Below, piece after piece: positions 6,580 to 64,000 of a DNA stretch of 64,000 nt. This stretch comes from Candidatus Omnitrophota bacterium. GTDB lineage: Bacteria; Omnitrophota; Gorgyraeia; Gygaellales; Profunditerraquicolaceae. The position numbers were made by a program, and so were the translations under genes. The DNA lies in the NCBI GenBank assembly GCA_963805065.1, contig CAWDSS010000017.1, positions 64,726-128,725 on the forward strand, given 5' to 3'. The notes beneath the pieces were generated by a model. It did not search any database and was not told the DNA's origin. It saw nothing but the letters and a program-made list of their open reading frames with translations. How positions within the stretch are numbered: the first letter of the stretch is position 1; each line of letters opens with the position of its first letter.

Positions 6580-6585
6580 ATTTGT

Positions 6586-7110: not shown

Positions 7111-7123
7111 TCTTAACCCCTTT

Positions 7124-8859: not shown

Positions 8860-8899
8860 ATTTCTCCTTCCTTATCCATTATAAATTACATTGTTTTAC

Positions 8900-8928: not shown

Positions 8929-8954
8929 CTGTTTTTTTATATATACTTCACTAA

Positions 8955-9032: not shown

Positions 9033-9038
9033 CCGACT

Positions 9039-9669: not shown

Positions 9670-9730
9670 TTTCTTCCTCCGGTTTTTTCCTTAATGTCTT
9701 CATTATAAAGTTTAAATTCTTGAAGGTCAA

Positions 9731-10559: not shown

Positions 10560-10569
10560 CTTAAAATTT

Positions 10570-14181: not shown

Positions 14182-14204
14182 TTGTCATTAACTATATCAT
14201 TGCT

Positions 14205-22499: not shown

Positions 22500-22739
22500 T
22501 TATCTCTTTTTTTTCTTGCCGCCTCTTTTCATCTTAGCGCAAGAGATATCGCCTTTCTTGTCTAAGAAATAAAGGTAGCCTTCTTTTCTCTTGATACCAA
22601 CCTTGGCCACCTTCTTGGGGCTACCTCCTTTTTTGGTGCCTCTTGCCATCTTAGCGCAAGAAACATCGCCTTTCTTGTCAATATAATAGAGGTAGCCTTT
22701 CTGCCTCTTGATGCCCAGCTTTACTAATTTTTCTGCCAT
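22500..22739 (-). CDS. Small lysine-rich protein made of two 39-aa repeats
   Basis: 79 aa. (V/A)K(L/V)GIKR(Q/K)(K/E)GYLY(Y/F)(I/L)DKKGD(V/I)SCAKM(A/K)RG occurs twice (117-nt DNA period). Strong SD GGAAGGGGGTGA and its own terminator. Confidence 0.7.
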   Translation of the reverse strand: MAEKLVKLGIKRQKGYLYYIDKKGDVSCAKMARGTKKGGSPKKVAKVGIKRKEGYLYFLDKKGDISCAKMKRGGKKKKR

Positions 22740-23611: not shown

Positions 23612-23706
23612 GTCAAAACGTAAAAATAAAAACTGCAACTTAAAACTAAAAACGTTTTAAGTTTTGCGTTGCAGTTTTGCGCTTTGAGTTTTTAGTTTTG
23701 AGTTTA
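23612..23706. repeat. Palindromic block of A/T-rich heptamer repeats at the panC/nadX junction
   Basis: (N)AAAAC(N) units on the left and GTTTT(N) units on the right, centred on AACGTT at 23651..23656. An 11-bp perfect stem AAAACTGCAAC/GTTGCAGTTTT is present. The block encodes the last ~15 aa and the stop of panC. Confidence 0.75.
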
Positions 23707-24988: not shown

Positions 24989-26151
24989 CATTTGTGTATT
25001 TTACTCAGTCGCCTAAATGCCTCTTTTATTCTTTCCCTTGATACAGTAAGCGCCATACGGATGTATCCTTCACCGTTCTTGCCAAATCCTGTTCCGGGAG
25101 TGACTATGATATCTGCTTTTTGTAATAAAAACCCCGCAAATTCTATGGAGTTGGTATTTTTCGGCAGTTTAATCCATACATAGAAAGTCGCTTTGGGAAT
25201 CCTCGCCTGCCAACCTAAAGATTCTAATCCTGAGACTAAGGTATCGCGTCTCTCCTGATAAAGGCTACGCATATTTTCTATATGCTCCTGCGGCCCCTCT
25301 AACGCGGCTATTCCTGCGAATTGTATCGCGGAAAATATTCCTGAATCAATGTTGGATTTTACTTTTGCTAAGGCAGATATCAAATTCCGGTTACCACAGG
25401 CCCAGCCGATACGCCAACCTGTCATATTGTATGTTTTGGAGAGAGAATGGAATTCTATTGCTACGTCTTTAGCACCTTCTATCTCTAAGAAGCTAGGCGG
25501 ACTAAACCCGTCATAAGCTATTTCAGAATAAGCCAAATCAGAAACCACAATTATTTTGTGTTTCCTGGCAAATTCAATAACATCGCGATAAAACGATTTT
25601 TGCGCAATAGCTGAAGTAGGATTATTAGGATAATTAATAAACATTATTTTTGCTTTTTTAGCTACGCTTGCAGGTATTTTTTTTGTGTCTAGCAGGAAAT
25701 TATTTGATTCCAAAAGCGGCATCAAATAAGGTTTGCCTCCGGCAAGGATTGTCCCTCCTTTGTAAGGAGGATAGCCGGGATCCGGGACTAATGAATAATC
25801 CCCCGTATTCAAAAATGCTAACGGTAAATGAGCAATCCCCTCTTTTGAGCCTATAAGAGGAAGAATTTCGCTATCGGGATTAAGATTCACGTTAAAACGT
25901 CTTTTATACCATCCTTCGATAGCGCGTCGCAAAGCCGGCATACCCTGATCTAAAGCATAGCGATGGTTTACGGGATCCTGCGCAGCACTATACAATGCCT
26001 CAATTATATGTTTAGGCGTCGGCTGATCAGGATCGCCTACTCCTAAATCAATAATATCCCTGCCTGATGCCACGGCTATTCTTTTGGCTTTATCAATTTC
26101 TAAAAAAGGGTAAGGCGGCAATGATTGTAATTTCTTAGATAAATTAAACAT
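24988..26151 (-). CDS. dapL: LL-diaminopimelate aminotransferase (class I/II aminotransferase)
   Basis: LPPYPFLEIDKAK N-terminus and the PLP-lysine motif SLSKTYNMTGWRIGW. Context with dapA/B/F and lysA. Confidence 0.8.
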   Translation of the reverse strand: MFNLSKKLQSLPPYPFLEIDKAKRIAVASGRDIIDLGVGDPDQPTPKHIIEALYSAAQDPVNHRYALDQGMPALRRAIEGWYKRRFNVNLNPDSEILPLIGSKEGIAHLPLAFLNTGDYSLVPDPGYPPYKGGTILAGGKPYLMPLLESNNFLLDTKKIPASVAKKAKIMFINYPNNPTSAIAQKSFYRDVIEFARKHKIIVVSDLAYSEIAYDGFSPPSFLEIEGAKDVAIEFHSLSKTYNMTGWRIGWACGNRNLISALAKVKSNIDSGIFSAIQFAGIAALEGPQEHIENMRSLYQERRDTLVSGLESLGWQARIPKATFYVWIKLPKNTNSIEFAGFLLQKADIIVTPGTGFGKNGEGYIRMALTVSRERIKEAFRRLSKIHK

Positions 26152-26209
26152 TTTTTACTTTTGCCTTTAAACTTTTAACTTTTGGCTTTTTCCTTTTAAC
26201 TTTTACTTA
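26152..26209. repeat. Tandem A/T-rich heptamers (plus strand CTTTTNN) at the dapB/dapL junction
   Basis: tactttt gccttta aactttt aactttt ggctttt tcctttt aactttt acttaac. Includes the dapB stop codon. Confidence 0.7.
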
Positions 26210-26912
26210 ACACATCTTGCATTGAATACAAGCCCGGCGGTTTTCCAAAAACCCATTTCGCTGCCTTAAGAGCTCCCACTGCAAATAAATCCCTGGTATG
26301 AGCCTGGTGTTTTATTTCAATGCGCTCTGAGTTCCCGCAAAAGATTACTGTATGGTCTCCCACAATATCTCCTAATCTTATAGCATGGACAGGGATCTCT
26401 TTTTTAGTTACATCTGAGAGAATCTGGCCAAATTTCTTTGCCGTTCCCGAAGGCGCATCTTTTTTCCCCCTGTGATGCGCTTCTACAATCTCGATATTAT
26501 AATCCGGGCCTAGCCTTTTTGCTATTTCAGGCAGCATCGAGAATAAGACATTGACTCCCACGGACATATTGGGAGAAAACACTACCGGTACAACTTTAGA
26601 AATATCTTCGACTTTTCTTATTTGGGTATCGCTTAAACCTGTTGTGCCTAATACGAATGCTTTTTTATACCTGGCAACATAATCCAAATTAACTTCTGTC
26701 GCCTCCGGGATTGTAAAATCAATAAACACATCAATTAAAAACAGGCCGTCGGCACTAGAGGAAATCTTCAGCTTCCCCATGTCCTTACCAATCATGGGAG
26801 TGCCTTTCTTCTCCAGCGCTAATGTCAATTCAAAATCCTTGTCAAAAGACGCCAGCTCAAATATTCGCCTGCCCATCCTTCCACAAGCACCGGCAATACC
26901 TAATTTTATCAT
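26196..26912 (-). CDS. dapB: 4-hydroxy-tetrahydrodipicolinate reductase
   Basis: GACGRMGRR N-terminus, EAHHRGKKDAPSGTA motif, SD AAGGAGAG. Confidence 0.93.
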   Translation of the reverse strand: MIKLGIAGACGRMGRRIFELASFDKDFELTLALEKKGTPMIGKDMGKLKISSSADGLFLIDVFIDFTIPEATEVNLDYVARYKKAFVLGTTGLSDTQIRKVEDISKVVPVVFSPNMSVGVNVLFSMLPEIAKRLGPDYNIEIVEAHHRGKKDAPSGTAKKFGQILSDVTKKEIPVHAIRLGDIVGDHTVIFCGNSERIEIKHQAHTRDLFAVGALKAAKWVFGKPPGLYSMQDVLSKS

Positions 26913-31372: not shown

Positions 31373-31428
31373 AGTTTTGCGTTTTTCCTTTTGCGTTTTA
31401 CTTTTACCTTTTTACTTTTACCTTTTAT
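31373..31428. repeat. Tandem A/T-rich heptamers at the argG/argH junction
   Basis: agttttg cgttttt ccttttg cgtttta cttttac cttttta cttttac cttttat. TTAGTTTTGCGTT also occurs at 31342..31354. Includes the argG stop. Confidence 0.75.
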
Positions 31429-35167: not shown

Positions 35168-35176
35168 TTTTAAAAT

Positions 35177-35234
35177 AAAGGGGACGTTTCTATTTTTCCT
35201 CTAAACTGGAGACGTTAAAAATAGAAACGTCCCC
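35177..35234 (-). terminator. 64-nt hairpin element, copy 2 (between argB and argD)
   Basis: Same arms as copy 1 (AAAGGGGACGTTTCTATTTTT / AAAAATAGAAACGTCCCC). The loop also contains GGAGACGTT, and the minus strand continues TTTATTTTAAAA-ATG(argD). Confidence 0.6.
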
Positions 35235-35244
35235 ATTTTTTCAC

Positions 35245-35279
35245 AGTTTTGCCTTTTTACTTTTACGTTTTGAGTTTAT
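35245..35279. repeat. Tandem A/T-rich heptamers at the argB stop
   Basis: agttttg ccttttt actttta cgttttg agtttat. Includes the argB stop at 35276. Confidence 0.65.
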
Positions 35280-36130
35280 TTTACTATCTCCGTTCCCACA
35301 CCCTGATCCGTGAATATTTCCAACAATAACCCGTGAGGAGTGCGCGCATCAATGATGTGTGTCTTCTTTACTCCCTTAGCCAGCGCTTCAATGCAAGCAG
35401 CTACCTTCGGGATCATGCCTTGCTGAATAATATTATTTTCTGCCAAGCCTTTTGCTTCTTCTGTGCTCAGAGTAGAAATAAAAGAATGGGGATCATCGGC
35501 ATTTCTCATAATCCCCTTAACGTTGGTTAACAAAACCAGTTTTTCCGCTTCTAATCCGGCAGCAATGCTTGCTGCAACTTCATCCGCATTAACATTGTAC
35601 GTTTTCTTGTCTTTACCCCTGCCCATAGGTAAAATTACCACGATTTTATCTTTTCTCAATTCATCTACCAAGGGTGCGGTATCTATCTGGGTAATATGCC
35701 CCACCAAACCCAAATCTACATTAGCCTTCTTTTTCTCAACCTGGATTATGTTTTTATCTTTACCGTTTATACCTGCGGCTTTTGCTCCTAACTCATCAAT
35801 TTCTTTTACTATTAAAGTATTCAGGTTTTGCAGTTCTTCCTCCACTAGATTAAGCGTCTCCTCATCAGTTACGCGCATGCCGTTTACAAACTCGGTTTTT
35901 TTGCCTGAGGCCCGCATTCGGTCGCTGATATTAGGCCCGCCGCCATGCACCAGTACCGGGCGTAAACCCATGAAATTTAAAAACACGATATCCTCCAATA
36001 CGCCCCTCCTTATCTTCTCTTCTCCTAAAATACTTCCGCCATATTTTATGACAATTGTTTTCTTATGGAATTTTTTAATATAGGGAAGCGCCTCAATAAG
36101 GACATCTGCTTTTCTAATTGCTTCTTCCAT
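35276..36130 (-). CDS. argB: Acetylglutamate kinase
   Basis: VIKYGGS and LVHGGGP motifs. 284 aa. Confidence 0.95.
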   Translation of the reverse strand: MEEAIRKADVLIEALPYIKKFHKKTIVIKYGGSILGEEKIRRGVLEDIVFLNFMGLRPVLVHGGGPNISDRMRASGKKTEFVNGMRVTDEETLNLVEEELQNLNTLIVKEIDELGAKAAGINGKDKNIIQVEKKKANVDLGLVGHITQIDTAPLVDELRKDKIVVILPMGRGKDKKTYNVNADEVAASIAAGLEAEKLVLLTNVKGIMRNADDPHSFISTLSTEEAKGLAENNIIQQGMIPKVAACIEALAKGVKKTHIIDARTPHGLLLEIFTDQGVGTEIVK

Positions 36131-45700: not shown

Positions 45701-45815
45701 AAGGTAAAAGTTAAAAGCAAAAAGGTAAAAGTTAGAAGTAAAAGTCAAAAGCATAAAAATACTTTTAATTTTTTACTTGTACTTTTTACTTTTGGCTTTT
45801 TACTTTTTACTTAAC
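45701..45815. repeat. ~115-bp imperfect palindrome built from A/T-rich heptamers (TAAAAGN / NCTTTTA)
   Basis: taaaagt taaaagc aaaaagg taaaagt tagaagt ... actttta atttttt acttgta cttttta cttttgg cttttta cttttta. Lies between the fabF stop and the leuC start. Confidence 0.8.
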
Positions 45816-52299: not shown

Positions 52300-52930
52300 C
52301 TTGTTTCCTGTAAAACGACAATATTGTATCGCCGTAACTGGCTTCTTTGATTAAGGTTAGCTTTTCAACCTGGCTTGGCAGCAGATCTTTCTTAAAATGC
52401 TGCACTACTATCAAACCATAGGGCGCTAATATATCATAAGCACCCAGGGTTTGCAAGGTTTTTTTTGCCACAGAAGGTGGCACACCAACCCCTCCGATAA
52501 GGTTGGGTGTTGCCGCAGAAGGCGGCACACCAACCTCTCCGATAAGGTTGGGTGTTGCCCGTACCTTTTGATACGGAGCGTCCATAAAGATAATATCGAA
52601 TGCTTTCTTGTCTTTATGAAGCTTGTGTATAACTTTTTCTACTTCCAAGGGTAACAAGGCGAAGTTACTTATCTTCAAAACCTCCATATTCTCCTTTATT
52701 ATTGCCAGGCAATCGCGGTCGTTTTCCACTAAGACAGCTTCCTTTGCTCCCCTTGACAAAGCCTCTATTCCTACAGCGCCTGAACCGGCAAACAACTCTA
52801 AAAAAGACAAACCCTCAATATCGCCCAGGATATCAAATATTGCTTTTCTTACCTTATCCTGTGTAGGCCTGATTGCCTTAGGCATCTTCAATAGCCTGCT
52901 CTTGTATTTTCCCGATGTTATTCTCATCAA
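52265..52930 (-). CDS. rsmD: 16S rRNA (guanine966-N2)-methyltransferase with a 30-aa tandem-repeat insertion
   Basis: LELFAGSGAVGIEALSRGA and FMDAPY motifs. At 221 aa it is ~35 aa longer than I recall for typical RsmD. Confidence 0.85.
   Translation of the reverse strand: MMRITSGKYKSRLLKMPKAIRPTQDKVRKAIFDILGDIEGLSFLELFAGSGAVGIEALSRGAKEAVLVENDRDCLAIIKENMEVLKISNFALLPLEVEKVIHKLHKDKKAFDIIFMDAPYQKVRATPNLIGEVGVPPSAATPNLIGGVGVPPSVAKKTLQTLGAYDILAPYGLIVVQHFKKDLLPSQVEKLTLIKEASYGDTILSFYRKQDVPNCYIPRDF
52468..52557. repeat. 45-bp tandem duplication (2 units), each unit hairpin-forming, in frame within rsmD
   Basis: Units 52468..52512 and 52513..52557 differ at 3 positions. Each contains GCACACCAACC...GGTTGGGTGTTGC. 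Encodes ATPNLIGEVGVPPSA-ATPNLIGGVGVPPSV. Confidence 0.85.
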
Positions 52931-55020
52931 CCTACCACCATTAACTTCTCATATTCCGGGAATCTCTGCAGAAGCTTCTGCTTTAACCCCAGGTTCTGCT
53001 TAGCCTCTAAGCCAGGATCCAGCTCTATAAGCTTTATTGCCTCATCCCGTGCCATCTTTAACAGCTTCATCTGCGTCAAAGGATTTGCGATTTTCAGTTC
53101 AGCTAAGCCATGCTGCCTGCTGCCGAAAAATTCACCCGGACCCCTGATTTTTAAGTCCTCCTCGGCAATACGGAATCCGTCATTGAATTGAACCATGGTT
53201 TGAATACGCGCTTTGGCTTCTTCGGTCGCTGCGTCAGCAACAAGAATACAGACTGACTCAAGCCCACCTCTTCCTACCCTGCCGCGTAATTGATGCAATT
53301 GGCTTAAACCGAAACGCTCTGCATGTTGGATAATCATACAGGTGGCATTGGGTATGTCAATGCCGACTTCCAGAACTGTTGTAGAAATCAACATATCCAA
53401 ATCCATATTCCGAAAATCCGACATTACCTGGTCTTGTTCCTCCTGTTTTAACCTGCCGTGAATCAGGCCTAATCTAAATTCTTTGAATTCTCCTGCCTTT
53501 AATTCACTGAATGCCTTTTTTACGCCTGCAATATCCAGTTCGTATGATTCCTCGATAACCGGATAAATTACATACACCTGCCTTCCTTGTTTTAATTCAT
53601 TCCTTGCTAAGCCGTAAGCTTGCAATGCCTGTTCTTGGCTAAAATGCAATGTTTTAACAGGTAGCCTTCCTGCCGGAAGTTCATTAATAACAGAAATGTC
53701 CAGGTCCCCGTACAAAGTAATTGCCAGCGTGCGGGGGATAGGAGTTGCAGTCATGATTAATACATCGGGGTTAATGCCTTTTTTAGGCAATAATGCCCGC
53801 TGGCTGACCCCGAATTTATGCTGTTCATCAATTACCACCAGGCCTAAGTTCTTAAATCCAACTGACTCTTCCAACAAGGCATGAGTACCGATTACCAAAT
53901 CAATCCTTCCCTCTTTTGCCTCCTGCTGGATTTTTTGTTTTTCTTTTTTGTCAATGCTGCTGGTAAGCAGCGCTACCTTTATCTGCTTTTGCTGAAAGCT
54001 GAGAGCTGAAAGCTGAGAGCTGATTTTCTCGAAATGCTGTTTGGCTAATATCTCCGTAGGCACCATGAAGGCAGCCTGATATCCTCCTTGTATGGCAATC
54101 ATACAGGCAATATTCGCCACTACGGTTTTACCCGACCCCACGTCACCCTGCAAAAGCCTCTGCATTGCCTGTGGCCTTGCCATGTCCAGCTTTATTTCTT
54201 CAATTACTTTTTTTTGTGATTCTGTCAGTTTAAAGCTAAGGCAGTTTATGAAATCCTGCTTGAGCTTGCCTTCAACTTTGTGAACGATCCCGCTTTTATT
54301 TGCTTTTTTTAATTTTCGTAAAACTAGGGGTAACTGGAATACAAAGAATTCTTCAAAGGCTAGCCTTCGGTATGCCTGTTGTTGTATCTGGTGATCTTGC
54401 GGAAAGTGCATACTGATGATGCTCTTTGCCAGATTTAGTAAATCATTCCTCGACCTGATATCAAAGGGGAGGGAATCATTCACAAAGGGGAGATACTCAT
54501 CGGCTACGGATTTAATAATTTTACGCAAACTTCGCTGAGTCATGTTTTGGGGTAAAGTATAAACGGGGACGATCCTACCTATGCTAAGCGACTGATCTTT
54601 GTCTCCTGAAACAATTTCAAATTCCGGGGAACTCATCTGCAACCTGTTTGCATAACGTTCAACCTTTCCGTACAAAATTAGAGTATCTTTGACTTTAAAA
54701 TAATCCTTAAGGTAGGGCTGGTTAAACCACACGCAAGAAATTTTTCCACTATCATCCCCTACCGTTACTTCAATTATGCTAAACCCACGCCTTCTAAAAG
54801 AAGTGCGTGCATTTTTCGCCAAGACTTCTGCTTTTATGGTCTGGACCTGTCCTTCTTGAAGTTTGGATATCGGGCTAAATTTTGTGCGGTCTTCGTAGCG
54901 CCGGGGGAAATAATAAAAAAAATCCTCTATCACGCTAACGCCACTCTTTTCTAAAGCCTTGGCTCGCTTAGGCCCGATTCCTTTTAAATAACGGACCGGT
55001 GTATCCAGCGATTTTTTCAT
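52927..55020 (-). CDS. recG: ATP-dependent DNA helicase RecG
   Basis: LLQGDVGSGKTVVA, VVIDEQHKFGV, QLHQLRGRVGRG. 697 aa. Confidence 0.95.
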   Translation of the reverse strand: MKKSLDTPVRYLKGIGPKRAKALEKSGVSVIEDFFYYFPRRYEDRTKFSPISKLQEGQVQTIKAEVLAKNARTSFRRRGFSIIEVTVGDDSGKISCVWFNQPYLKDYFKVKDTLILYGKVERYANRLQMSSPEFEIVSGDKDQSLSIGRIVPVYTLPQNMTQRSLRKIIKSVADEYLPFVNDSLPFDIRSRNDLLNLAKSIISMHFPQDHQIQQQAYRRLAFEEFFVFQLPLVLRKLKKANKSGIVHKVEGKLKQDFINCLSFKLTESQKKVIEEIKLDMARPQAMQRLLQGDVGSGKTVVANIACMIAIQGGYQAAFMVPTEILAKQHFEKISSQLSALSFQQKQIKVALLTSSIDKKEKQKIQQEAKEGRIDLVIGTHALLEESVGFKNLGLVVIDEQHKFGVSQRALLPKKGINPDVLIMTATPIPRTLAITLYGDLDISVINELPAGRLPVKTLHFSQEQALQAYGLARNELKQGRQVYVIYPVIEESYELDIAGVKKAFSELKAGEFKEFRLGLIHGRLKQEEQDQVMSDFRNMDLDMLISTTVLEVGIDIPNATCMIIQHAERFGLSQLHQLRGRVGRGGLESVCILVADAATEEAKARIQTMVQFNDGFRIAEEDLKIRGPGEFFGSRQHGLAELKIANPLTQMKLLKMARDEAIKLIELDPGLEAKQNLGLKQKLLQRFPEYEKLMVVG
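53991..54025. repeat. Tandem heptamers GCTGAAA/GCTGAGA inside recG (same family as 33944..34006)
   Basis: gctgaaa gctgaga gctgaaa gctgaga gctgatt. Encodes SSQLSALSFQQ. Confidence 0.8.
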
Positions 55021-55481
55021 AAAGTAATCTGGGGTTCTTCTGATTCAGGTAGGCCTTTCATTGGAGGAGTAGGCCTTTCTTCCGGAGCCTGGGGTTTAAT
55101 TTTACCCTGGGTAACTTCTATCTCAAATGAATCCGTGGAAACAGGCTTATTGTTTATTTTTATGGAAGCCGGGTTGATTTTGAATTTTCCCGCGGCGTTG
55201 GGTGCCAAAACAAATTCATATATTAAAGTAGTCTTTGGGCCATCCTTGCCAAAAACCATATTGGAAGATTCAACCTGGGATAACACTGCAAAATTCGTAA
55301 ACCCGGGAAGCTGAGGTACAGGTAACGTCTTATCAGTTGAGGTTATGGTTATTTTATAGGTAAGCGTATCATCAGTGGATATCTTAGGCTTATCCACCTG
55401 CGCTCTTATGGAGGTATCGGCAAAAGAGTAAACCAGCGAGGAAAATAAAAAAATCAAGGAAAAAACTGTCAGCCTTTTCAT
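55017..55481 (-). CDS. Secreted protein, BatD N-terminal-domain-like
   Basis: Signal peptide MKRLTVFSLIFLFSSLVYSFA and a beta-rich domain (VDKPKISTDDTLTYKITITS...) resembling the first domain of BatD. Pro/Glu-rich tail. ATGA overlap with recG. The family call is weak. Confidence 0.35.
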   Translation of the reverse strand: MKRLTVFSLIFLFSSLVYSFADTSIRAQVDKPKISTDDTLTYKITITSTDKTLPVPQLPGFTNFAVLSQVESSNMVFGKDGPKTTLIYEFVLAPNAAGKFKINPASIKINNKPVSTDSFEIEVTQGKIKPQAPEERPTPPMKGLPESEEPQITL

Positions 55482-55529
55482 GGTTTAATTTTTACATATT
55501 AACCAAAAACTGTCAATAGCTTTTAGGCC

Positions 55530-55558
55530 TTGAATTTCTACAAAATTTGTGGTATATT
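55530..55558 (+). promoter_or_regulatory. Strong plus-strand sigma70-like promoter with extended -10
   Basis: TTGAAT (55530..55535), a 17-nt spacer ending in TGG, then TATATT (55553..55558). Confidence 0.5.
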
Positions 55559-55564
55559 ATTAAT

Positions 55565-55657
55565 TGAAAAAAGGTACAACAAAGGAGGCAGGCAAGATAG
55601 CGAAAGCTATAAGGCCTATCACCTACAAGAATCCCCAGAATGTTTGGGGATTTTTTG
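55565..55657 (+). ncRNA. Candidate small RNA (~90 nt), unknown family
   Basis: Bounded by the promoter above and a plus-strand-specific intrinsic terminator (ATCCCCA-gaatgtt-TGGGGAT + TTTTTGTTT, 55631..55660). It contains a hairpin AGGAGGCAGGC-aag-AUAGC-GAAA-GCUAU-aag-GCCUAUCACCU (55583..55624). There is no start codon after the SD-like AAAGGAGG. Confidence 0.4.
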
Positions 55658-55660
55658 TTT

Positions 55661-55714
55661 ACGTTTGCATAACTTACGGAGCACAAAGTGCGAACGTAAG
55701 TTATATGCAAACGT
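55661..55714. repeat. AACTTACG-type palindromic element, copy C
   Basis: ACGTTTGCATAACTTACG-gaGCACaaaGTGCgaa-CGTAAGTTATATGCAAACGT. Confidence 0.7.
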
Positions 55715-55759
55715 AAATCCCGAGCCTACGAACGCAATTTTGAAAAAATTGCGGAGTGC

Positions 55760-56731
55760 TTAGGCGAGGGAACTCATGTCACATCCCTCTATCAACTCCC
55801 TCATCTCCTCCCTCGTCTTAGCTGTAGATGATTTCTCCCTTAAAGACCGGACTTTACGAAAACCTTTTGTATACCAGGCAAAAAACTTTCGGAATTGCAT
55901 GACCCCGATCCTCTCTTTGTAAAAATCAATACAGCTGTCCAGATGCTCCAGCATTATTTTAACAATTTCTTTTCTATCAGGGCGCTCGGGGATCTTGCCT
56001 GTTTTTAGATACTCTTCTGTTTCCTTGAATATCCAAGGGTTACCCAAGGAGCCACGCGCAATTGCCACGCCGTCGCAACCTGTTTCATCAAATATCTTTT
56101 TGATTAATGGCGCATGGAATGCATCGCCGCTGGCAATAAGCGGAATTCCTAAGGCTTTCTTCACCTGGCAGATTACCTCATAATCAACTGGCCCTGAATA
56201 GCCTTGTGTTTTTGTCCTGCCGTGCAGAATCACTGCCTTAACTCCTGCATCCTGGGCAGCCAGCGCGATTGTCCTGGCATTGACGGAATCTCTGTCCCAG
56301 CCGCTACGGATCTTGACAGTCACAGGAACTTTAGAATTGGCTATTACCAGTTTAAGAAGTTTTTGTAATTTTTTGGGGTCTTTCAATAAACTAGCACCTT
56401 CGCCCCTGCGCGTCACTTTCTTGACAGGGCAGGCAGCATTAAAATCCAGTAAATCGAACTCGTATTCTTTAAGTATTTCTAAAGCTGCAAATATATATTT
56501 TGGCTCCGCTCCCAATATCTGTATGCCCAAAGGCTTATCTTTTGGATGAGAAGAGAGCATCTGACGGGTCCTTTTGCTCCCGTAGCTCATAGAGCGCACA
56601 TTTATCATTTCTACAAACGCAAGCTCGCAGCCGAATTTGCGGTTTATCAACCGAAAAGGCAAGTCGCTTATACCTGCCATAGGCGCAAGGAAAAGTGAAG
56701 ATTGAATTTTGAGGGCACCGATTTTAAGCAT
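55760..56731 (-). CDS. dusB: tRNA-dihydrouridine synthase
   Basis: FLAPMAGISDLPFRL and DFNAACPVKKV (catalytic Cys). 323 aa. Confidence 0.9.
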   Translation of the reverse strand: MLKIGALKIQSSLFLAPMAGISDLPFRLINRKFGCELAFVEMINVRSMSYGSKRTRQMLSSHPKDKPLGIQILGAEPKYIFAALEILKEYEFDLLDFNAACPVKKVTRRGEGASLLKDPKKLQKLLKLVIANSKVPVTVKIRSGWDRDSVNARTIALAAQDAGVKAVILHGRTKTQGYSGPVDYEVICQVKKALGIPLIASGDAFHAPLIKKIFDETGCDGVAIARGSLGNPWIFKETEEYLKTGKIPERPDRKEIVKIMLEHLDSCIDFYKERIGVMQFRKFFAWYTKGFRKVRSLREKSSTAKTREEMRELIEGCDMSSLA

Positions 56732-56798
56732 AATTATTCTTATGGCGAAATTGTCTAGCGCGGGTTATAAAAGGAAGGGAATTTATATACTAACAGGA

Positions 56799-57149
56799 CT
56801 ACTCTACCTTTACTGTCTTTTTAAGCTCTCCGCCCTCATTGCATGTGGCGGTAATATCAAGCGCATCACCCTTCTTCAAATTTACTTCTGAGTAGCTGGC
56901 TGCCTGCGTATTCTTATTTGTCTGGCTGGAGAAATGCTGCAAAATCCAAGTTTTACCATTAAGCTTTATCTCAAGAGACACAATAAAATGTTTTGTAGGA
57001 TCCTTTACGTTATGCCATACGCCTATAGCCAGGATTTTCTTATCAGGATAATACTTATAAACTATTGAATCCGGAGCGTGGGAAAAACTGATAGAAGTAA
57101 AACTGATTACTAATAAAAAGGCGGCAACTGCTAATATAGTCTTTCTCAT
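56799..57149 (-). CDS. Secreted small beta-rich protein with superoxide-reductase-like motif pattern
   Basis: Signal peptide, then SHAP...VWHNVKDPTKHFI...TCNEGGE. This parallels the SOR centre-II pattern KHVP / HPxxxxxH / CNxHG, except that the last His is Gly. Confidence 0.35.
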   Translation of the reverse strand: MRKTILAVAAFLLVISFTSISFSHAPDSIVYKYYPDKKILAIGVWHNVKDPTKHFIVSLEIKLNGKTWILQHFSSQTNKNTQAASYSEVNLKKGDALDITATCNEGGELKKTVKVE

Positions 57150-57216
57150 CTACCCTCCTTTGTTTTTTTCTACTATAACAACGCATTAAAAAAGAAAAGT
57201 CAAACATTTAAGCAAA

Positions 57217-57579
57217 TTAAGTGGTATCTGGTTTATTCAAACTCCTCAACAGGTCAACTATAGAAGGTTTGTTGCCGGGGGCAGGATCCTCCTGTTTTGG
57301 CTGAGTTTCTTTAACATCCTGCGGCGGCTGTATGCCTAATCTTTCAACATCTTTTTCCAATTCGTCATACTGGCTCTTGAGGCCATGGAATAATTCTTCT
57401 TTTAAAGCCAGTTCCTTTTTTAAGTTATCTACCTCCAGCTTTAGCCTCTGGGAATCTTTCTCAAGCTCGTTATTTTTGCTTGCCTCGCGCGAAACCTTAA
57501 ATGCAACAAACAAAGAAATAATAAACAGGCAGGCAAGAATACTCAAAAATACCGCAGGGCTTAGAAGAATCGCCATCAT
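57217..57579 (-). CDS. Membrane-anchored coiled-coil protein
   Basis: N-terminal TM helix, then a heptad-rich segment (LKLEVDNLKKELALKEELFHGLKSQYDELEKDVERL), then a Pro/Gln-rich tail. SD GAAAGGAG. Confidence 0.55.
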   Translation of the reverse strand: MMAILLSPAVFLSILACLFIISLFVAFKVSREASKNNELEKDSQRLKLEVDNLKKELALKEELFHGLKSQYDELEKDVERLGIQPPQDVKETQPKQEDPAPGNKPSIVDLLRSLNKPDTT

Positions 57580-57618
57580 CTTCCGGACTCCTTTCTAAAT
57601 TTAATTTCAAGCAAATGT

Positions 57619-57647
57619 ATTATATACCTTAATGCGTATTAAATCAA
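57619..57647 (-). promoter_or_regulatory. Sigma70-like promoter
   Basis: TTGATT (57647..57642), a 17-nt spacer, then TATAAT (57624..57619), ~40 nt upstream of ATG 57579. Confidence 0.5.
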
Positions 57648-57660
57648 GATAACATATAGT

Positions 57661-57700
57661 AAAGAAACCGGGCGCCCTGCTTTTTAAACCGGAGCGCCCG
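57661..57700 (-). terminator. Rho-independent terminator ending the two-component operon
   Basis: Minus strand reads CGGGCGC-loop-GGCGCCCGG followed by TTTCTTTAC, 20 nt after the stop at 57720. Confidence 0.6.
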
Positions 57701-57719
57701 TTTAATTCTTCAACACCTG

Positions 57720-58043
57720 TTAGTCGCCGTATACGGTTGTGGTATACTCGCCGTAAATACCTAACACGTTCTTTGAGTCGTAATCAACAAACTTAATGTT
57801 CCTGATGCCTGCGTTCGCAGCAGCTGCCTTGATACTCGCATCTCCGGTGGCCACTAACCCTAAGACTGATGTAGCTTTGGCAACTCCCACTTTACTGTAG
57901 CTTAAGCTTCCGTCTCCTGCAGCAACGGGAGATTTTATTTCTGTGTAAATCATCCCCATCGGATATGGCGTTGCGCAACCGGCTAATAAAGATACTGACA
58001 TCAGCAATATCGCGGCATAAATCATTTTTTTATTCATTTTCAC
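57720..58043 (-). CDS. TRL-like lipoprotein
   Basis: Lipobox LLAGC, then VLGLVATGDASIKAAAANAGIRNIKFVDYDSKNVLGIYGEYTTTVYGD, which matches the TRL family pattern as I remember it. Confidence 0.7.
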   Translation of the reverse strand: MKMNKKMIYAAILLMSVSLLAGCATPYPMGMIYTEIKSPVAAGDGSLSYSKVGVAKATSVLGLVATGDASIKAAAANAGIRNIKFVDYDSKNVLGIYGEYTTTVYGD

Positions 58044-58098
58044 CTCCTCCCATTTCTAATAATTTTCCATATAATATATTATTTTGGAGTCTTCTTCC

Positions 58099-58329
58099 CT
58101 ATTGAATGGGGAAATTACTGAATATTGTTTTATAATAATTGTTGATGGACTTAAGAGAAGCGATAGTTGCGATTATCAGGAAATAGCTGGCCACAAGAAT
58201 AATTATACTGATAATTACCTTGGCATTCTTGCTAAGATGCGGGCTTAGCCAGACCAAAGGAAGGACAAAAGGCCCCACGCACAAAAAAATAATTATTAAG
58301 CTAGAGGTTTTAAAATACCACTTCTCCAC
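58099..58329 (-). CDS. Small two-TM membrane protein
   Basis: 76 aa with two hydrophobic helices. No recognised family. Confidence 0.4.
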   Translation of the reverse strand: MEKWYFKTSSLIIIFLCVGPFVLPLVWLSPHLSKNAKVIISIIILVASYFLIIATIASLKSINNYYKTIFSNFPIQ

Positions 58330-58374
58330 TATTCACTCTTTCCCCTGACAGGTATACCTTGCGCCCTTAATTCA

Positions 58375-59877
58375 TCAGAGTTTCTCTAAAACACGCAAGA
58401 ACACCTCTACTACCTTCGGGTCAAACTGGGTGCCGCTGCCTTTTTTTAGTTCTGCGATAGCTTCTTCTTTGGTAAGCGCCTTGCGGTAAGGCCGGTCGGT
58501 AAACATGGCATCAAAACTATCCGCCACAGTCAGAATACGCGCACCCAAAGCGATTTCTTCTGCCTTTAGCTCAGCAGGATAACCTTTTCCGTCGTATCTC
58601 TCGTGGTGTTGCTCAACCAGTTTTATTACTTCGCTTAAAAAAGCTAATGGCCGCAAAATTTCAGCGCTCTTAACAGGGTGCATCTTCATTTTCTCCCACT
58701 CTTCACTGGATAGCTTCCCCGGCTTTGTAAGAATATAATCTTCTATGCCGATTTTGCCGATATCATGCAACTGACAGGCCTGTTCCAGGTCCTTAAGCTG
58801 CTCTTCCGCGAGGCCAATTTCTTTGGCAATGGCCAACGCGTATTCACAGACATGCTCAGAGTGTTTATGCGTATAATGGTCTTTGGCATCTATGGCTGAT
58901 GTAAGGGCTGAAACCGTGCGCATGTAACTGTCCTCGAGGCTGCTGTACAGGCGGGCGTTTTCAATTGCAATGGCTGCCTCAGCAGCTACGCCTTTAATAA
59001 ACCTGAAATCCTCCTTGGTAAAAACTTCTCTTGACCTTTTATTATTCACATTGATTACGCCGATCACCCCGTCCTTAGTCTTGAGGGGCACACTGATAAA
59101 AGAATGGGTATAATATTTTTCATTATTCCTCTGGCTAAAACGGGTGTCGGTTTCGATATCCTCTACCAAGACTCCTTCCTGGTGCTCTGCAATCCAACCG
59201 GAAATTAATTCTCCTACTTTTAACCTCGTATGCGTAATTACATCGCTCTCTAAGCCCTTAGCGCACCTGATTGTCAATTCCCCGGTATTCTTATCTACTA
59301 ATAGTATGGAGCAAATCTCCAAGTCCAGATTTTTTGTAATTCTATCTACGATAATCTCAAGGACTCGATTCAAATCCAGGGTTGAGGACATATCACGGCC
59401 TATCTTATATAGAAGAAACAGTTCTTTTGTCCTGTCTTTTGCTTTTTCTTCCAGTTTCTCATTTTGCTCTTCCAGCTGATGCATTAATCTTTTGTTTATC
59501 TGTTTCAGCTCACGGAAAGAAATTGCTCTTTTAATCACGAATGATATTTCATCCACGGTAAATGGCTTCATTACATAATCGTAAGCACCCTGCCGTAGTG
59601 CCGACTGAACCGTTTCAAAAGACGGGTAACCCGTCATTACGATAGCCACGCACTCAGGGTCAACCTTCTTAATTTCCTCCAATACCTTGATTCCGTCCAT
59701 ATCCGGCATTTTTAAATCCGTCATCACTACATCAAAATTTCCCTCTTTAAATTTATTTATGCCATCCTGCCCAGATTCGGTATACTTGACTGCATATCCC
59801 TGGTCGGTGAATAAGGTATTTAGCAGCTCACAAATAACTGTCTCGTCATCAATGATTAAAATACTATTTTGCGCCAT
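58375..59877 (-). CDS. Response regulator with GAF and HD-GYP domains (putative c-di-GMP phosphodiesterase)
   Basis: REC domain (DVVMTDLKMPDMDG), a central GAF, and HD-GYP (HDIGKIGI, HHERYDGKGYP). Confidence 0.88.
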   Translation of the reverse strand: MAQNSILIIDDETVICELLNTLFTDQGYAVKYTESGQDGINKFKEGNFDVVMTDLKMPDMDGIKVLEEIKKVDPECVAIVMTGYPSFETVQSALRQGAYDYVMKPFTVDEISFVIKRAISFRELKQINKRLMHQLEEQNEKLEEKAKDRTKELFLLYKIGRDMSSTLDLNRVLEIIVDRITKNLDLEICSILLVDKNTGELTIRCAKGLESDVITHTRLKVGELISGWIAEHQEGVLVEDIETDTRFSQRNNEKYYTHSFISVPLKTKDGVIGVINVNNKRSREVFTKEDFRFIKGVAAEAAIAIENARLYSSLEDSYMRTVSALTSAIDAKDHYTHKHSEHVCEYALAIAKEIGLAEEQLKDLEQACQLHDIGKIGIEDYILTKPGKLSSEEWEKMKMHPVKSAEILRPLAFLSEVIKLVEQHHERYDGKGYPAELKAEEIALGARILTVADSFDAMFTDRPYRKALTKEEAIAELKKGSGTQFDPKVVEVFLRVLEKL

Positions 59878-60256
59878 TTATGTTTTCCTTTTTTTCAAGA
59901 ATCTGGTTAACGATTGTCTTAACCTCATCTATGTGAAAGGGCTTGTGGATGCAGGTGATCGCCCCTTCCTTCTGTAGTTCTTCCACTAGATATGTCGGCA
60001 TACTATCAGTCATCACGATAAATGTCTTGGGGCATTTCTTCATTAGCATGCGTAATGTGCTTAGCCCGTCCATCACCGGCATATGCACATCCACAAAGGC
60101 AATGTCAAAGGAAGCATCCTTGACAATTTCTTCAGCTTCTTTTCCGTTACAAACAGTAGTAACGCTATACCCCTGGTCCGTAAGAATGTCACTAAAAAGA
60201 CTGCGCATAATCTGTTCGTCATCTACAATTAAAATCCGGACATCTTTATTGTTCAT
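59864..60256 (-). CDS. Single-domain CheY-like response regulator
   Basis: 130 aa with DIAFVDVHMPVMDG. ATGA overlap with the kinase stop. Confidence 0.88.
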   Translation of the reverse strand: MNNKDVRILIVDDEQIMRSLFSDILTDQGYSVTTVCNGKEAEEIVKDASFDIAFVDVHMPVMDGLSTLRMLMKKCPKTFIVMTDSMPTYLVEELQKEGAITCIHKPFHIDEVKTIVNQILEKKENINGAK

Positions 60257-62451
60257 CGAGCCACCTCCCCTACCGGCAAAGTAATAATGAATGTAGCGCC
60301 TTTACCTACCTGACTTCTTACTTCAATTTTTCCTTTATGGTCCTGGATAATCTGATAACTTATGGATAATCCAAGGCCGGTGCCTTTTTCCGTCTTAGTG
60401 GTGAAGAATGGCTCAAAGATGCGGATTAAATTTTCTTCCGGGATGCCGCAGCCGGTATCGCTAAATTCAATTTGCACTGCAGAAGGTAACTTAGACTGTT
60501 CATCTAATACATTCTTAGCAGTAAGAGTAATCTGGCCTCCTGTAGGCATGGCCTGCTGGGCATTAAGTATAAGATTGGTAAATACCTGTTGTAAGAGGTT
60601 AACCACGCCCATAACCCTGACTAAATTCGGCTGGATATTTACGAAGATGCTGACGTTACGCATCTTTAGCTGATGTTCCATAATGGCAAGCGTCTCCTCA
60701 ATTGCCAGGCCCACATCCATTAATTCCGGCCGGTCAATAAGGGATTTCCTGGAGAACCTTAATAAGTTATTGACGATTTTCTTACAGCGCATAGACTCCT
60801 TCTCAATGGACTCAATAAAGCCTTTGCAGGATTTAAAATCATCCGAGCTAAAACCGGGGCGGTTAATTTTATCCAGCATGAACTGGGCATAGCCTAAAAT
60901 GCCGCCTAAGGGATTATTTAATTCATGGGCAACACCAGCGCCTAATTGGCCTATAGCTGCCATCTTGGCAGATTGAATCAGCTGCGTCTGGGCCTCTTGC
61001 AACTCGCGGTTGGTCTTCTCTAATCCTTCGTATAATAAATAATTGTTCACCGCTACTGCGATTTCCTGGCCTGCGGTGGACAAGAGATTGATATCCTCTA
61101 TCTTGTAGCCTTCGCCGGAGAGTTTCTTACCCAGGCTTAAGATTCCGATTAAGCCTCTTTGCACGATTAAGGGTATGATTAATTCCACCTCCAGCAACTC
61201 CATAATCTTAAGCCCATCAGGCTTGACATCTTTAAACTTGGGCTCAACTATCAATAATTCTTTTTCCACGATATTGCCGTATGTTTGCAGGAAGGCCACA
61301 AAAGGGCTATTTTTTTCAAAAGTGACATTGATGTTGCTTAGGCCCTGGCTTTCCCGGATAGCATAGCGGTCGAGCTTTTCATCAAATAACATCAAATTAA
61401 CTTTATCTATGTGGATGGTCTCGGCAATCGTAGAGGTAACCGTACGCAACAAATCAGGAGAATCAAGAAATAAGCTTATTTTCTTGGCGAACTTTTCTAA
61501 GGTCTTACGGTAGTCGTATTTATCCCGATAAAAGATCCTGTCTACAAAATGCTGAGTTTTATCTTTTAGCGGGGTGATAAAAGACAAAAACAAGGTGATG
61601 AGAAAACTTGTGGCGATGATTTCTTGAATACTGGTAGTCTCTTTTCGTAACAGGAATTGGATAAAAACAATCGTGCCCCCGTAAGTCAAAATCACTAGCG
61701 ATGACAATAACGCATAAATAACAATCTTATGTACCAGGGTCTCAATATCCATAAGCCGGTATTTAATGATACTGTAAGCTATAATTGAAAAAAGCAGAAA
61801 CACAGGCAAAGAACCAAAGGGATAAACTTCTATTCCGTAATTAGGCAGGTAATCCCAGGAGCCCAGATACGCAATGAAAAAAGCCATAAACAAAAGCTTG
61901 CGCCGCTCTTTTTCAATTAACAGGTTTTCCTGTTTATAGCCGCGATAAAAATTAACCAGGCTGGCTAACATCAGAATAAAAAAGAAAAGCAAAAAAGGCG
62001 GGTGTAGAAAACTGGCCAAAGGATAGTAACCCCAGTAATATTTCTTTACTGCCCCTACAAACCAACTGGTCTGACTTAACACACAAAAAACCGCGCTCAT
62101 TACATAAGCCAAAACCACAAACTTCTTCTGGCGCCAGAATTTAAGATAAGCTACTGAGAAGGCATAAATGCTGGAGGAAATAAATGAAACACCTACGTAA
62201 ACGAATCTCCCCCAAAAAAGCGCCACTGCATAGTTCTTACTCACGCCGCACATTGTCTGAAACAACATCCAGGCTGATGCGGAAAAACAAGCATAAGCAA
62301 AGTATATGTTTGCGCTGGGCCTGTGTGTCTTTAAGACGATAAACGCGGCTAATGAGAATACGGTAATGGCAACCGCAAAATTAGGAATGCTGTAAGGATT
62401 TAAATAATAGTTCGCCGGATTAAAAAGTGTAGAAAGACTTTTCAGTATCAT
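60253..62451 (-). CDS. Sensor histidine kinase (N-terminal 7TM sensor, GAF, HisKA, HATPase_c), copy 1
   Basis: About 7 N-terminal TM helices, a GAF-like segment, H-box GAGVAHELNNPLGGI, N-box NLILNAQQAM, G1 DTGCGIPEE, G2 GTGLGLSIS. Confidence 0.9.
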   Translation of the reverse strand: MILKSLSTLFNPANYYLNPYSIPNFAVAITVFSLAAFIVLKTHRPSANIYFAYACFSASAWMLFQTMCGVSKNYAVALFWGRFVYVGVSFISSSIYAFSVAYLKFWRQKKFVVLAYVMSAVFCVLSQTSWFVGAVKKYYWGYYPLASFLHPPFLLFFFILMLASLVNFYRGYKQENLLIEKERRKLLFMAFFIAYLGSWDYLPNYGIEVYPFGSLPVFLLFSIIAYSIIKYRLMDIETLVHKIVIYALLSSLVILTYGGTIVFIQFLLRKETTSIQEIIATSFLITLFLSFITPLKDKTQHFVDRIFYRDKYDYRKTLEKFAKKISLFLDSPDLLRTVTSTIAETIHIDKVNLMLFDEKLDRYAIRESQGLSNINVTFEKNSPFVAFLQTYGNIVEKELLIVEPKFKDVKPDGLKIMELLEVELIIPLIVQRGLIGILSLGKKLSGEGYKIEDINLLSTAGQEIAVAVNNYLLYEGLEKTNRELQEAQTQLIQSAKMAAIGQLGAGVAHELNNPLGGILGYAQFMLDKINRPGFSSDDFKSCKGFIESIEKESMRCKKIVNNLLRFSRKSLIDRPELMDVGLAIEETLAIMEHQLKMRNVSIFVNIQPNLVRVMGVVNLLQQVFTNLILNAQQAMPTGGQITLTAKNVLDEQSKLPSAVQIEFSDTGCGIPEENLIRIFEPFFTTKTEKGTGLGLSISYQIIQDHKGKIEVRSQVGKGATFIITLPVGEVAR
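60270..61691. repeat. Near-identical 1.42-kb direct repeat, unit 1 (cytoplasmic part of kinase 1)
   Basis: Matches 62501..63922 at a constant offset of 2231 bp. The one mismatch I found is 61187 A vs 63418 G. Similarity drops sharply after 61691/63922. Confidence 0.85.
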
Positions 62452-62486
62452 GCTTTTATTATACTGTAATATTAGCGCTTATTCAA

Positions 62487-64000
62487 TCAAAATGCGGATG
62501 CTACCGGCAAAGTAATAATGAATGTAGCGCCTTTACCTACCTGACTTCTTACTTCAATTTTTCCTTTATGGTCCTGGATAATCTGATAACTTATGGATAA
62601 TCCAAGGCCGGTGCCTTTTTCCGTCTTAGTGGTGAAGAATGGCTCAAAGATGCGGATTAAATTTTCTTCCGGGATGCCGCAGCCGGTATCGCTAAATTCA
62701 ATTTGCACTGCAGAAGGTAACTTAGACTGTTCATCTAATACATTCTTAGCAGTAAGAGTAATCTGGCCTCCTGTAGGCATGGCCTGCTGGGCATTAAGTA
62801 TAAGATTGGTAAATACCTGTTGTAAGAGGTTAACCACGCCCATAACCCTGACTAAATTCGGCTGGATATTTACGAAGATGCTGACGTTACGCATCTTTAG
62901 CTGATGTTCCATAATGGCAAGCGTCTCCTCAATTGCCAGGCCCACATCCATTAATTCCGGCCGGTCAATAAGGGATTTCCTGGAGAACCTTAATAAGTTA
63001 TTGACGATTTTCTTACAGCGCATAGACTCCTTCTCAATGGACTCAATAAAGCCTTTGCAGGATTTAAAATCATCCGAGCTAAAACCGGGGCGGTTAATTT
63101 TATCCAGCATGAACTGGGCATAGCCTAAAATGCCGCCTAAGGGATTATTTAATTCATGGGCAACACCAGCGCCTAATTGGCCTATAGCTGCCATCTTGGC
63201 AGATTGAATCAGCTGCGTCTGGGCCTCTTGCAACTCGCGGTTGGTCTTCTCTAATCCTTCGTATAATAAATAATTGTTCACCGCTACTGCGATTTCCTGG
63301 CCTGCGGTGGACAAGAGATTGATATCCTCTATCTTGTAGCCTTCGCCGGAGAGTTTCTTACCCAGGCTTAAGATTCCGATTAAGCCTCTTTGCACGATTA
63401 AGGGTATGATTAATTCCGCCTCCAGCAACTCCATAATCTTAAGCCCATCAGGCTTGACATCTTTAAACTTGGGCTCAACTATCAATAATTCTTTTTCCAC
63501 GATATTGCCGTATGTTTGCAGGAAGGCCACAAAAGGGCTATTTTTTTCAAAAGTGACATTGATGTTGCTTAGGCCCTGGCTTTCCCGGATAGCATAGCGG
63601 TCGAGCTTTTCATCAAATAACATCAAATTAACTTTATCTATGTGGATGGTCTCGGCAATCGTAGAGGTAACCGTACGCAACAAATCAGGAGAATCAAGAA
63701 ATAAGCTTATTTTCTTGGCGAACTTTTCTAAGGTCTTACGGTAGTCGTATTTATCCCGATAAAAGATCCTGTCTACAAAATGCTGAGTTTTATCTTTTAG
63801 CGGGGTGATAAAAGACAAAAACAAGGTGATGAGAAAACTTGTGGCGATGATTTCTTGAATACTGGTAGTCTCTTTTCGTAACAGGAATTGGATAAAAACA
63901 ATCGTGCCCCCGTAAGTCAAAAGCACCAGTGATGACAATAAGGCATAAATGATAAACCTGTGGATGAGTGTTTCAGCTTCCATCAGGCGGTATTTAATAA
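62487..64000 (-). CDS. Sensor histidine kinase, copy 2 (N-terminus outside the window)
   Basis: Same domain set as copy 1. The reading frame stays open upstream of the ORF-track Met (..IKYRLMEAETLIHRFIIYALL parallels IKYRLMDIETLVHKIVIYALL of copy 1), so the gene continues beyond base 64000. Confidence 0.85.
   Translation of the reverse strand, partial: IKYRLMEAETLIHRFIIYALLSSLVLLTYGGTIVFIQFLLRKETTSIQEIIATSFLITLFLSFITPLKDKTQHFVDRIFYRDKYDYRKTLEKFAKKISLFLDSPDLLRTVTSTIAETIHIDKVNLMLFDEKLDRYAIRESQGLSNINVTFEKNSPFVAFLQTYGNIVEKELLIVEPKFKDVKPDGLKIMELLEAELIIPLIVQRGLIGILSLGKKLSGEGYKIEDINLLSTAGQEIAVAVNNYLLYEGLEKTNRELQEAQTQLIQSAKMAAIGQLGAGVAHELNNPLGGILGYAQFMLDKINRPGFSSDDFKSCKGFIESIEKESMRCKKIVNNLLRFSRKSLIDRPELMDVGLAIEETLAIMEHQLKMRNVSIFVNIQPNLVRVMGVVNLLQQVFTNLILNAQQAMPTGGQITLTAKNVLDEQSKLPSAVQIEFSDTGCGIPEENLIRIFEPFFTTKTEKGTGLGLSISYQIIQDHKGKIEVRSQVGKGATFIITLPVASAF
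62501..63922. repeat. Near-identical 1.42-kb direct repeat, unit 2 (cytoplasmic part of kinase 2)
   Basis: See unit 1. The translations are identical except for one V/A change and the last 5-6 residues. Confidence 0.85.

Follow-up and report, generated by a model that had tools for sequence, protein, structure and literature searches.

The stretch of DNA examined here, referred to as the window, comprises 64,000 nucleotides (nt) of contig CAWDSS010000017.1 from a Candidatus Omnitrophota bacterium (assembly GCA_963805065.1), and all coordinates given are positions within it. At its high-coordinate end a pair of adjacent histidine kinase genes, HK2 and HK1, heads an operon which in gene orientation reads HK2, a 35 nt spacer, HK1, a single-domain receiver and a receiver-GAF-HD-GYP protein, with all of the genes on the minus strand. 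The two kinase genes are virtually identical over 1.42 kb at their 3′ ends and abruptly diverged beyond it. The features of the locus are as follows.

62487-64000, minus strand: HK2, the upstream histidine kinase, partial, with an open reading frame (ORF) that is open to the window edge; Pfam matches to HisKA, HATPase_c and, weakly, GAF.
63923-64000, minus strand: visible sensor piece of HK2, comprising the end of the seven-transmembrane (7TM) region and a transmembrane (TM) helix up to its midpoint, diverged from 61692-61769 of HK1.
62501-63922, minus strand: HK2 copy of the identical block, covering half a TM helix followed by another, a GAF-like region, the DHp domain with its H-box and the catalytic domain.
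63418 (partner 61187), minus strand: the sole mismatch in the block, where HK2 codes for Ala.
62452-62486, minus strand: spacer of 35 nt from the HK2 stop to the HK1 ATG, containing TTGAAT-17 nt-TATAAT and no Shine-Dalgarno sequence.
60253-62451, minus strand: HK1, a complete histidine kinase of 732 residues; Pfam matches to HisKA_7TM, HisKA and HATPase_c.
60270-61691, minus strand: HK1 copy of the identical block, from a repeat search and positionwise comparison.
59864-60256, minus strand: single-domain response regulator of 130 residues; Pfam match to Response_reg, acceptor Asp motif FVDVHMP.
58375-59877, minus strand: receiver-GAF-HD-GYP protein of 500 residues; Pfam matches to Response_reg, GAF and HD_5.

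The two copies of the block align at a constant offset of 2231 bp with one mismatch in 1422 nt (99.93% identity). This mismatch, at 61187/63418, gives valine at residue 423 (V423) of HK1 and alanine in HK2. Alanine is found at this site in all seven aligned homologues (P0002-P0008), indicating that the valine of HK1 is the derived state. On the high-coordinate side, which is 5′ in the gene sense, 61692-61769 and 63923-64000 differ at 20 of 78 nt (74-76% identity); 19 of these mismatches fall in the 26 complete codons and result in seven amino-acid changes (73% amino-acid identity). These 78 nt are all of the diverged part of HK2 that the window contains, and they form the only homologous flank visible. 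On the low-coordinate side identity stops at 60269/62500, 4-5 codons before the stops, and the remaining tail codons are unrelated. The contrast between block and flank (1/1422 compared with 19/78 mismatches) gives a Fisher P of 8e-25. In a runs test that included five orthologues, the longest concordant run between HK1 and HK2 covered 459 of the 800 polymorphic sites, compared with 6-14 for the kinase-orthologue pairs, and the HK1-HK2 result was at the permutation floor.

The 5′ boundary of the block (codon 254/255) does not coincide with a domain border but lies inside the TM helix at HK1 residues 243-261, and from the middle of this helix to residue 728 the two products are identical but for one residue. 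Both kinase ORFs are intact as far as they are visible, the junction and spacer sequences are unique, and neither a further copy of the block nor a third kinase paralogue was found in the 64 kb window. We note a terminator-like hairpin at 63926-63904, at the block boundary, but it is a consensus match inside a coding TM helix and was given no weight.

An earlier, sequence-only reading of this DNA had described two adjacent histidine kinases on the same strand, matching at this offset with one mismatch and a single Val/Ala change; the repeat search and positionwise comparison agree on each count, and the Pfam matches identify both genes as kinases. The fall in similarity to about three quarters that it reported upstream of 61691/63922 is reproduced over the 78 nt, where, both genes being on the minus strand, `upstream' means higher coordinates, and the differing 3′ ends that it noted are equally evident (GEVAR and ASAF before the respective stops). 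It had also held that the last TM helix and the GAF, DHp and catalytic domains are identical, which is correct, with the block beginning in mid-helix, and that the boundaries are sharp; the divergence is indeed not evenly spread, an even spread being the pattern that the reading itself had named as counting against it. Its claim that the multi-TM input domains differ stands for the visible 26 codons, but for the whole domain it is an extrapolation and a functional difference is not established.

HK1 is identical to protein P0001 of the protein collection that we searched. It consists of a HisKA_7TM domain (residues 26-236; 39.6 bits for PF16927, cut-off 28.6), two further TM helices placed by a hydropathy scan at approximately 243-261 and 277-295, a GAF-like region, HisKA (501-569) and HATPase_c (617-727). 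The window shows 503 codons of HK2 and its stop; ∼229 N-terminal codons, the PF16927 region among them, fall outside it, and the HisKA_7TM match is established for HK1 alone. The HisKA and HATPase_c scores (PF00512 and PF02518) are above the cut-offs in both kinases, at 48.1 and 94.4 bits for HK1 and 49.3 and 95.7 bits for HK2, and the Pfam GAF match is weak in both. The H-box GVAHELNNPL and the G-boxes DTGCGI and GTGLGL are present in each, and an N box is present as well. HK2 ends in ITLPVASAF and is followed by the 35 nt spacer before the HK1 ATG. HK1 ends in LPVGEVAR; the sequence coding for GEVAR and the stop carries a GGAGG ribosome-binding site, and the stop overlaps the receiver start (ATGA).

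The nature of the flank divergence is informative. For the 26 diverged codons the Nei-Gojobori method gives ∼1.13 synonymous substitutions per site (dS) and ∼0.15 nonsynonymous substitutions per site (dN), with dN/dS ∼0.13, while dS for the block is 0. The differences are mostly at third positions, and the amino-acid changes are mostly conservative (D/E, V/I, K/R and I/L), less so for I/A and I/F. To judge from this codon structure, the flank is old divergence under purifying selection, lying beside a block with dS of 0. The same structure rules out several simple explanations. Sequencing error was rejected on this ground, and a simple recent tandem duplication of the whole gene was rejected given the dS of ∼1.1 in the sensor parts. 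A diversity-generating retroelement was likewise rejected: no adenine-specific bias was found in the mismatch spectrum, and a Pfam scan of the neighbouring genes showed no reverse transcriptase among them. Unequal crossing-over producing a hybrid middle gene was also considered and rejected, as it would give neighbours with common sensors or common tails, unlike the pattern seen.

Comparison with related loci bears on the histories of the two segments. Six relatives (L032, L033, L035, L106, L107 and L108), with 7TM-GAF kinases at 62-74% identity, each have a single kinase. In all six it lies directly upstream of a receiver gene and/or a receiver-GAF-HD-GYP gene, and its own upstream neighbour is never a kinase. 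A receiver is 3′ of the kinase in five of them (L032, L033, L035, L106 and L108), while in L107 the HD-GYP regulator follows directly; L033 also has downstream synteny in common with the window (TRL, Dus, BatD and RecG). The presence of one kinase in all six indicates that the tandem pair is specific to the lineage of the window. HK1 and its closest orthologue, in L035, are 72.8% identical in DNA over the sensor part and 78.3% over the block. Over the 78 nt sensor piece the matches are 59/78 for HK1 and HK2, 57/78 for HK1 and L035, and 59/78 for HK2 and L035, so that in this piece HK1 is as diverged from HK2 as it is from L035, whereas over the block the two kinases match at 99.93%. The two identities are at odds, and the segments appear to have incongruent histories, as far as can be judged from a 78 nt flank and from relatives none of which carries both genes. 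We also note a 437-residue homologue (P0017; ENA ERZ1426815, a contig of 1713 nt) which is 78% identical to the block, starts just past the TM region and lies directly behind another short gene. The gene may be frameshifted, or the protein may be a form of this kinase that naturally lacks a sensor.

More distant metagenome relatives (57-64% identity; L037, L045 and L040-L044) have arrays in which 2-5 kinases precede the same regulators. The largest array has five kinases, four complete and one cut by the contig end, and the arrays include both 7TM-PAS and 7TM-GAF variants. In L037 (positions 1-10961 of JGI Ga0315286_10007053) the order is REC-GGDEF, a 7TM-PAS kinase, a receiver, a 7TM-GAF kinase, two 7TM-PAS kinases, two receivers and an HD-GYP protein; in L045 there are three kinases, and a FIST protein comes before one of them. 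Transmitter cores of the same array resemble each other in DNA (77-91% identity) more than cores of different genomes do. The 7TM-GAF kinase of L037 and the next 7TM-PAS kinase share ∼480 nt at 93-100% identity with flanks at ∼80%, beyond which the sensors cannot be aligned, and other pairs of L037 cores alternate between blocks of 90-98% and 60-65%. A Sawyer-type runs test on the paralogous L037 cores gave P <= 0.0006 in four of six pairs. Exchange between tandem transmitter cores therefore seems to be recurrent in this operon family, with the window as its most recent and most complete instance. The sequence-only reading had pointed to related genomes as a place where the paralogues might also be homogenized; the close relatives, having single kinases, contain no pair to homogenize, and it is in the distant arrays that mosaic, near-identical cores are found.

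The single kinase of the close relatives can be read in another way, namely that the lineage gained its second gene only lately, by recent partial duplication or domain shuffling. The transmitter block would then have been copied once and attached to a diverged 7TM segment that was already present or had been acquired horizontally, or the sensor of a recent whole-gene duplicate would have been replaced by related Omnitrophota DNA. The HK2 sensor piece is equally far from HK1 and from the L035 orthologue, as a xenologous origin would give, and identity reaches exactly to the non-homologous 3′ junction, as it would at a duplication junction. Lineage-specific kinase expansions also typically show shuffling of N-terminal sensors (PMC1630713). 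However, the 5′ boundary lies in a TM helix, within homologous sequence that remains collinear at the offset of 2231, which would sooner be expected where a recombination tract between paralogues ends than at an illegitimate fusion. The mosaic patches in the related arrays indicate repeated homologous exchange, and no mobile-element genes were seen nearby in the Pfam scan. We consider this origin unlikely, although of the alternatives weighed here it is the one that deserves the most serious attention.

On balance we lean towards the view that HK1 and HK2 are real, lineage-specific tandem paralogues, the transmitter halves of which were homogenized by very recent interlocus gene conversion. 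According to this scheme, the two kinase genes would have diverged long ago, giving sensors with ∼75% DNA identity and near-saturated synonymous change. Non-reciprocal homologous recombination between the copies would then have overwritten the 3′ 1.42 kb of one of them. Of the two tract ends, one would lie inside the TM helix and the other at the limit of alignable homology, 4-5 codons before the stops; such ends would fit heteroduplex extension or branch migration halted by heterology. A single substitution, Ala to Val in HK1, would have occurred since. The locus shows the near-identity tract with sharp ends beside a collinear flank of low identity by which gene conversion is recognized, with one flank of 78 nt, and the mosaic cores of the L037 array support homologous exchange as the mechanism. 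Of the two possibilities that the sequence-only reading had offered, gene conversion is thus the one best supported, by the dS of ∼1.1 compared with 0, the single-kinase relatives and the mosaic arrays, whereas a programmed cassette-like exchange is unsupported (the repeats are direct, with no inverted repeats and no visible recombinase gene).

Several observations weigh against conversion between old paralogues. What can be said of the second sensor and of when the duplication took place rests on 26 codons (78 nt). The two-kinase arrangement was not found in any relative compared, and an old duplication therefore needs loss elsewhere or under-sampling. Homologous recombination is inefficient at ∼75% identity, and a conversion tract must start in better-matching stretches. 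In addition, the locus is known from a metagenome assembly alone, and the HK2 product, full or partial, is absent from a collection of 15 billion proteins, as judged by a homology search with HK1 and by exact look-ups of two possible partial products. That collection does contain other products of the 129116 bp contig that encodes P0001, namely HK1, both regulators, Dus and UvrA. The absence of HK2 could point to a gap or frameshift, or to a fault in the contig, immediately outside the window. The homology search with HK1 returned HK1 itself and no second protein with the identical 474 residues. A search with the HK1 sensor alone gave one unrelated match of 182 residues and did not return HK1 itself, and hence is uninformative. 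No close relative was found in the genome collection, in which the best match was 42%.

The missing HK2 protein, in the presence of its neighbours, also speaks for another reading, in which the tandem arrangement or the near-identity of the blocks is an artefact of assembly or polishing: a loop was mis-resolved, strains were chimerized or similar paralogues were homogenized by polishing. The source is a chromosomal piece of a metagenome-assembled genome. The best named matches of its proteins are all to Omnitrophota metagenome-assembled genomes; for UvrA, which is identical to a protein of the 129116 bp contig, each named relative at 77-79% is from Omnitrophota. A near-perfect repeat of 1.4 kb is beyond the resolution of short reads alone. 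The only independent assembly of this strain that was found, a Logan assembly of run ERR10755942, also stops before the operon: its contig L034 is 100% identical to window positions 53995-58333 (4339 nt), showing that the run contains the same strain, and ends ∼40 nt before the HD-GYP gene. Against this, the unique junction from the HK2 tail through the spacer to the HK1 start requires a true tandem in at least some molecules, and a false duplicate would be identical throughout, without a collinear, codon-structured flank of dN/dS ∼0.13. One real difference persists inside the block, and independently assembled relatives also hold tandem arrays with partly homogenized cores. Polishing could inflate identity, yet it would need cores that were already very similar beside a 75%-identical flank. 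In our view an artefact is distinctly improbable.

With its 1.42 kb direct repeat, the locus is predicted to lose or amplify the 2231 bp unit frequently through RecA. A further alternative is a dynamic, selected copy-number or switching system, in which the unit is a transient amplification or a programmed sensor-swapping cassette. Direct repeats of this length would allow RecA-dependent expansion and contraction, and a deletion between them would join the HK2 sensor to the regulator-proximal transmitter; a two-component system of Burkholderia thailandensis is described as being under duplication-mediated control (PMC12124856). Amplification units would, however, match over their full length, and here the sensor parts differ by ∼25%. 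Nor are there inverted repeats, a recombinase gene in the visible 10 kb or the adenine-biased pattern of a retroelement. We regard such a system as highly improbable. An invertible shufflon was rejected as a separate candidate, the repeats being direct, with no inverted repeats in 56000-64000 and no recombinase among the genes scanned.

Downstream of the kinases, the 500-residue protein scores 99.2 bits for Response_reg and 137 bits for HD_5 and contains the motifs VMTDLKMP (with the acceptor Asp), QLHDIGK and HHERYDGKGYP. By motif it has the receiver Asp, the HD and the HHExxDGxGYP of RpfG-like receiver-HD-GYP phosphodiesterases; the extra GAF domain found here is atypical for RpfG itself. 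This protein is presumed to be the output of the operon, a phosphodiesterase of cyclic di-GMP (c-di-GMP), and the 130-residue receiver is presumed to be the phosphotransfer partner of both kinases. Elsewhere in the window a PilB-like type IV pilus ATPase (2716-4437, minus strand) matches NF053729 (64.8 bits, cut-off 38), an MshE-type motif for c-di-GMP binding, at its N-terminus, and is thus a candidate for sensing, further downstream, the c-di-GMP pool that the HD-GYP operon would control.

Residues of the DHp domain set partner choice and dimerization specificity. Context for DHp specificity and kinase interaction is given in PMC9208753 and PMC8498467. With identical DHp, catalytic and GAF-like modules, both kinases should phosphorylate the same two receivers and could heterodimerize. 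HK1 and HK2 should accordingly feed the same two regulators, the receiver and the receiver-GAF-HD-GYP protein, HK1-HK2 heterodimers are probably possible, and a single c-di-GMP-degrading output would serve both membrane sensors. A wider proposal is that recurrent conversion may actively keep the transmitters of tandem kinases identical in the c-di-GMP arrays of Omnitrophota (and related bacteria) while the sensors diverge, making the array one multi-input receptor with freely heterodimerizing subunits and one phosphotransfer interface. This would be a selected `anti-insulation', the opposite of the insulation of paralogues; we put it forward tentatively and think it unlikely to hold as stated. 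If the structure is real, the locus is a natural experiment in which the sensor varies while the sequence is constant at every position from the last TM helix on, and with it the output. It would then be useful for asking about the inputs of 7TM sensors and about signal integration by heterodimeric kinases.

The spacer between the kinases contains TTGAAT-17-TATAAT (62458-62486, minus strand), which ends 6 nt before the HK1 ATG and matches the consensus at 10 of 12 positions, tied as the best match with one other site in 57500-64000. It may be an internal promoter, producing a near-leaderless or leaderless HK1 transcript, in which case transcription of HK1 and the regulators may not depend on that of HK2. 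The spacer is unlike the upstream regions of the orthologous kinases, and conservation between them was not found.

Other repeats occur in the window. A 72 nt palindromic element is present twice, at 14083-14185 and 35170-35263 (89% identical), forming long hairpins with 42 nt arms that are 88% complementary; it resembles a terminator or a REP-like intergenic repeat. Five periodic T-rich tracts with CTTTTAC/TTTTGC-like units (GTAAAAG on the gene strand) are found at 23655-23704, 26125-26223, 31375-31427, 35241-35290 and 45704-45812, mostly in gaps between ORFs, and these also pair as inverted repeats. Short tandem duplications are present at 22512-22721 (93 nt twice, 80% identical) and 52465-52554 (45 nt twice, 93% identical).

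Among described kinases, HK1 resembles PrsK, the XrtA/PEP-CTERM kinase (TIGR02916), with which it shares a multi-TM N-terminus, a GAF domain and a kinase, residues 26-726 being collinear with positions 5-679 of the model. Its identification as PrsK was rejected, the score being 151.8 bits against a cut-off of 300, and the partner here, an HD-GYP regulator, differs from PrsR, which is a sigma-54 activator.

Bacterial paralogues are well known to evolve in concert, as in tufA/tufB and the rRNA operons. In Ehrlichia ruminantium, conversion of ntrX, a two-component regulator gene, derives from a segmental duplication (PMC9937504). As in these cases of interlocus conversion, the pair in the window shows a near-identical, sharp-ended tract between diverged copies, here attributed to non-reciprocal homogenization. 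Unlike in the known conversions, the tract covers only the transmitter half and would yield a functional chimera with different sensors on the same output interface, and the repeats are direct and 2.2 kb apart. No report of conversion limited to the transmitter half of tandem kinases was found in the literature, our coverage of which is incomplete, and this is weak evidence of novelty.

Lineage-specific kinase expansions with shuffled N-terminal sensors have been described, the mechanism of rearrangement being left open (Alm, Huang & Arkin, 2006; PMC1630713). As in those expansions, related kinase domains are kept here and the N-terminal input region differs. The pair in the window differs from them in being adjacent and inside an operon with its own regulators, and in having a shared part that is 99.93% identical in DNA with a base-pair-sharp boundary in a TM helix. 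Its sensors, as far as they are visible, are also of the same domain type, diverged and not swapped, although the related L037 array does combine GAF and PAS variants. Taken with the mosaic cores of the related arrays, the locus suggests homologous exchange between tandem copies as a mechanism for part of this `domain shuffling'. It changes no paradigm on its own and rests on a metagenome assembly; as a case of how bacterial sensing pathways evolve it is instructive and not unprecedented.

Many-to-one signalling is familiar from KinA-E, which act on Spo0F, and from LuxN, LuxQ and CqsS, which act on LuxU. Several kinases converge on one regulator in these networks, as is proposed here, and some of the known kinases interact through their DHp domains; RetS-GacS is an example of a multikinase network (PMC8498467). 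The known kinases have diverged transmitters, whereas those in the window are identical, and their convergence and heterodimerization are predicted from sequence identity alone.

The usual fate of two-component paralogues, as set out in Nocedal & Laub (2022; PMC9208753) and PMC10160972, is divergence of the interface residues, which avoids cross-talk. Such divergence is normally fast and insulates the new pathway from the old. Both that process and the one proposed here concern the specificity residues of duplicated kinases, but they run in opposite directions. In the window the interface would have been re-homogenized, and the locus appears to have been caught with old, diverged sensors on a freshly homogenized transmitter.

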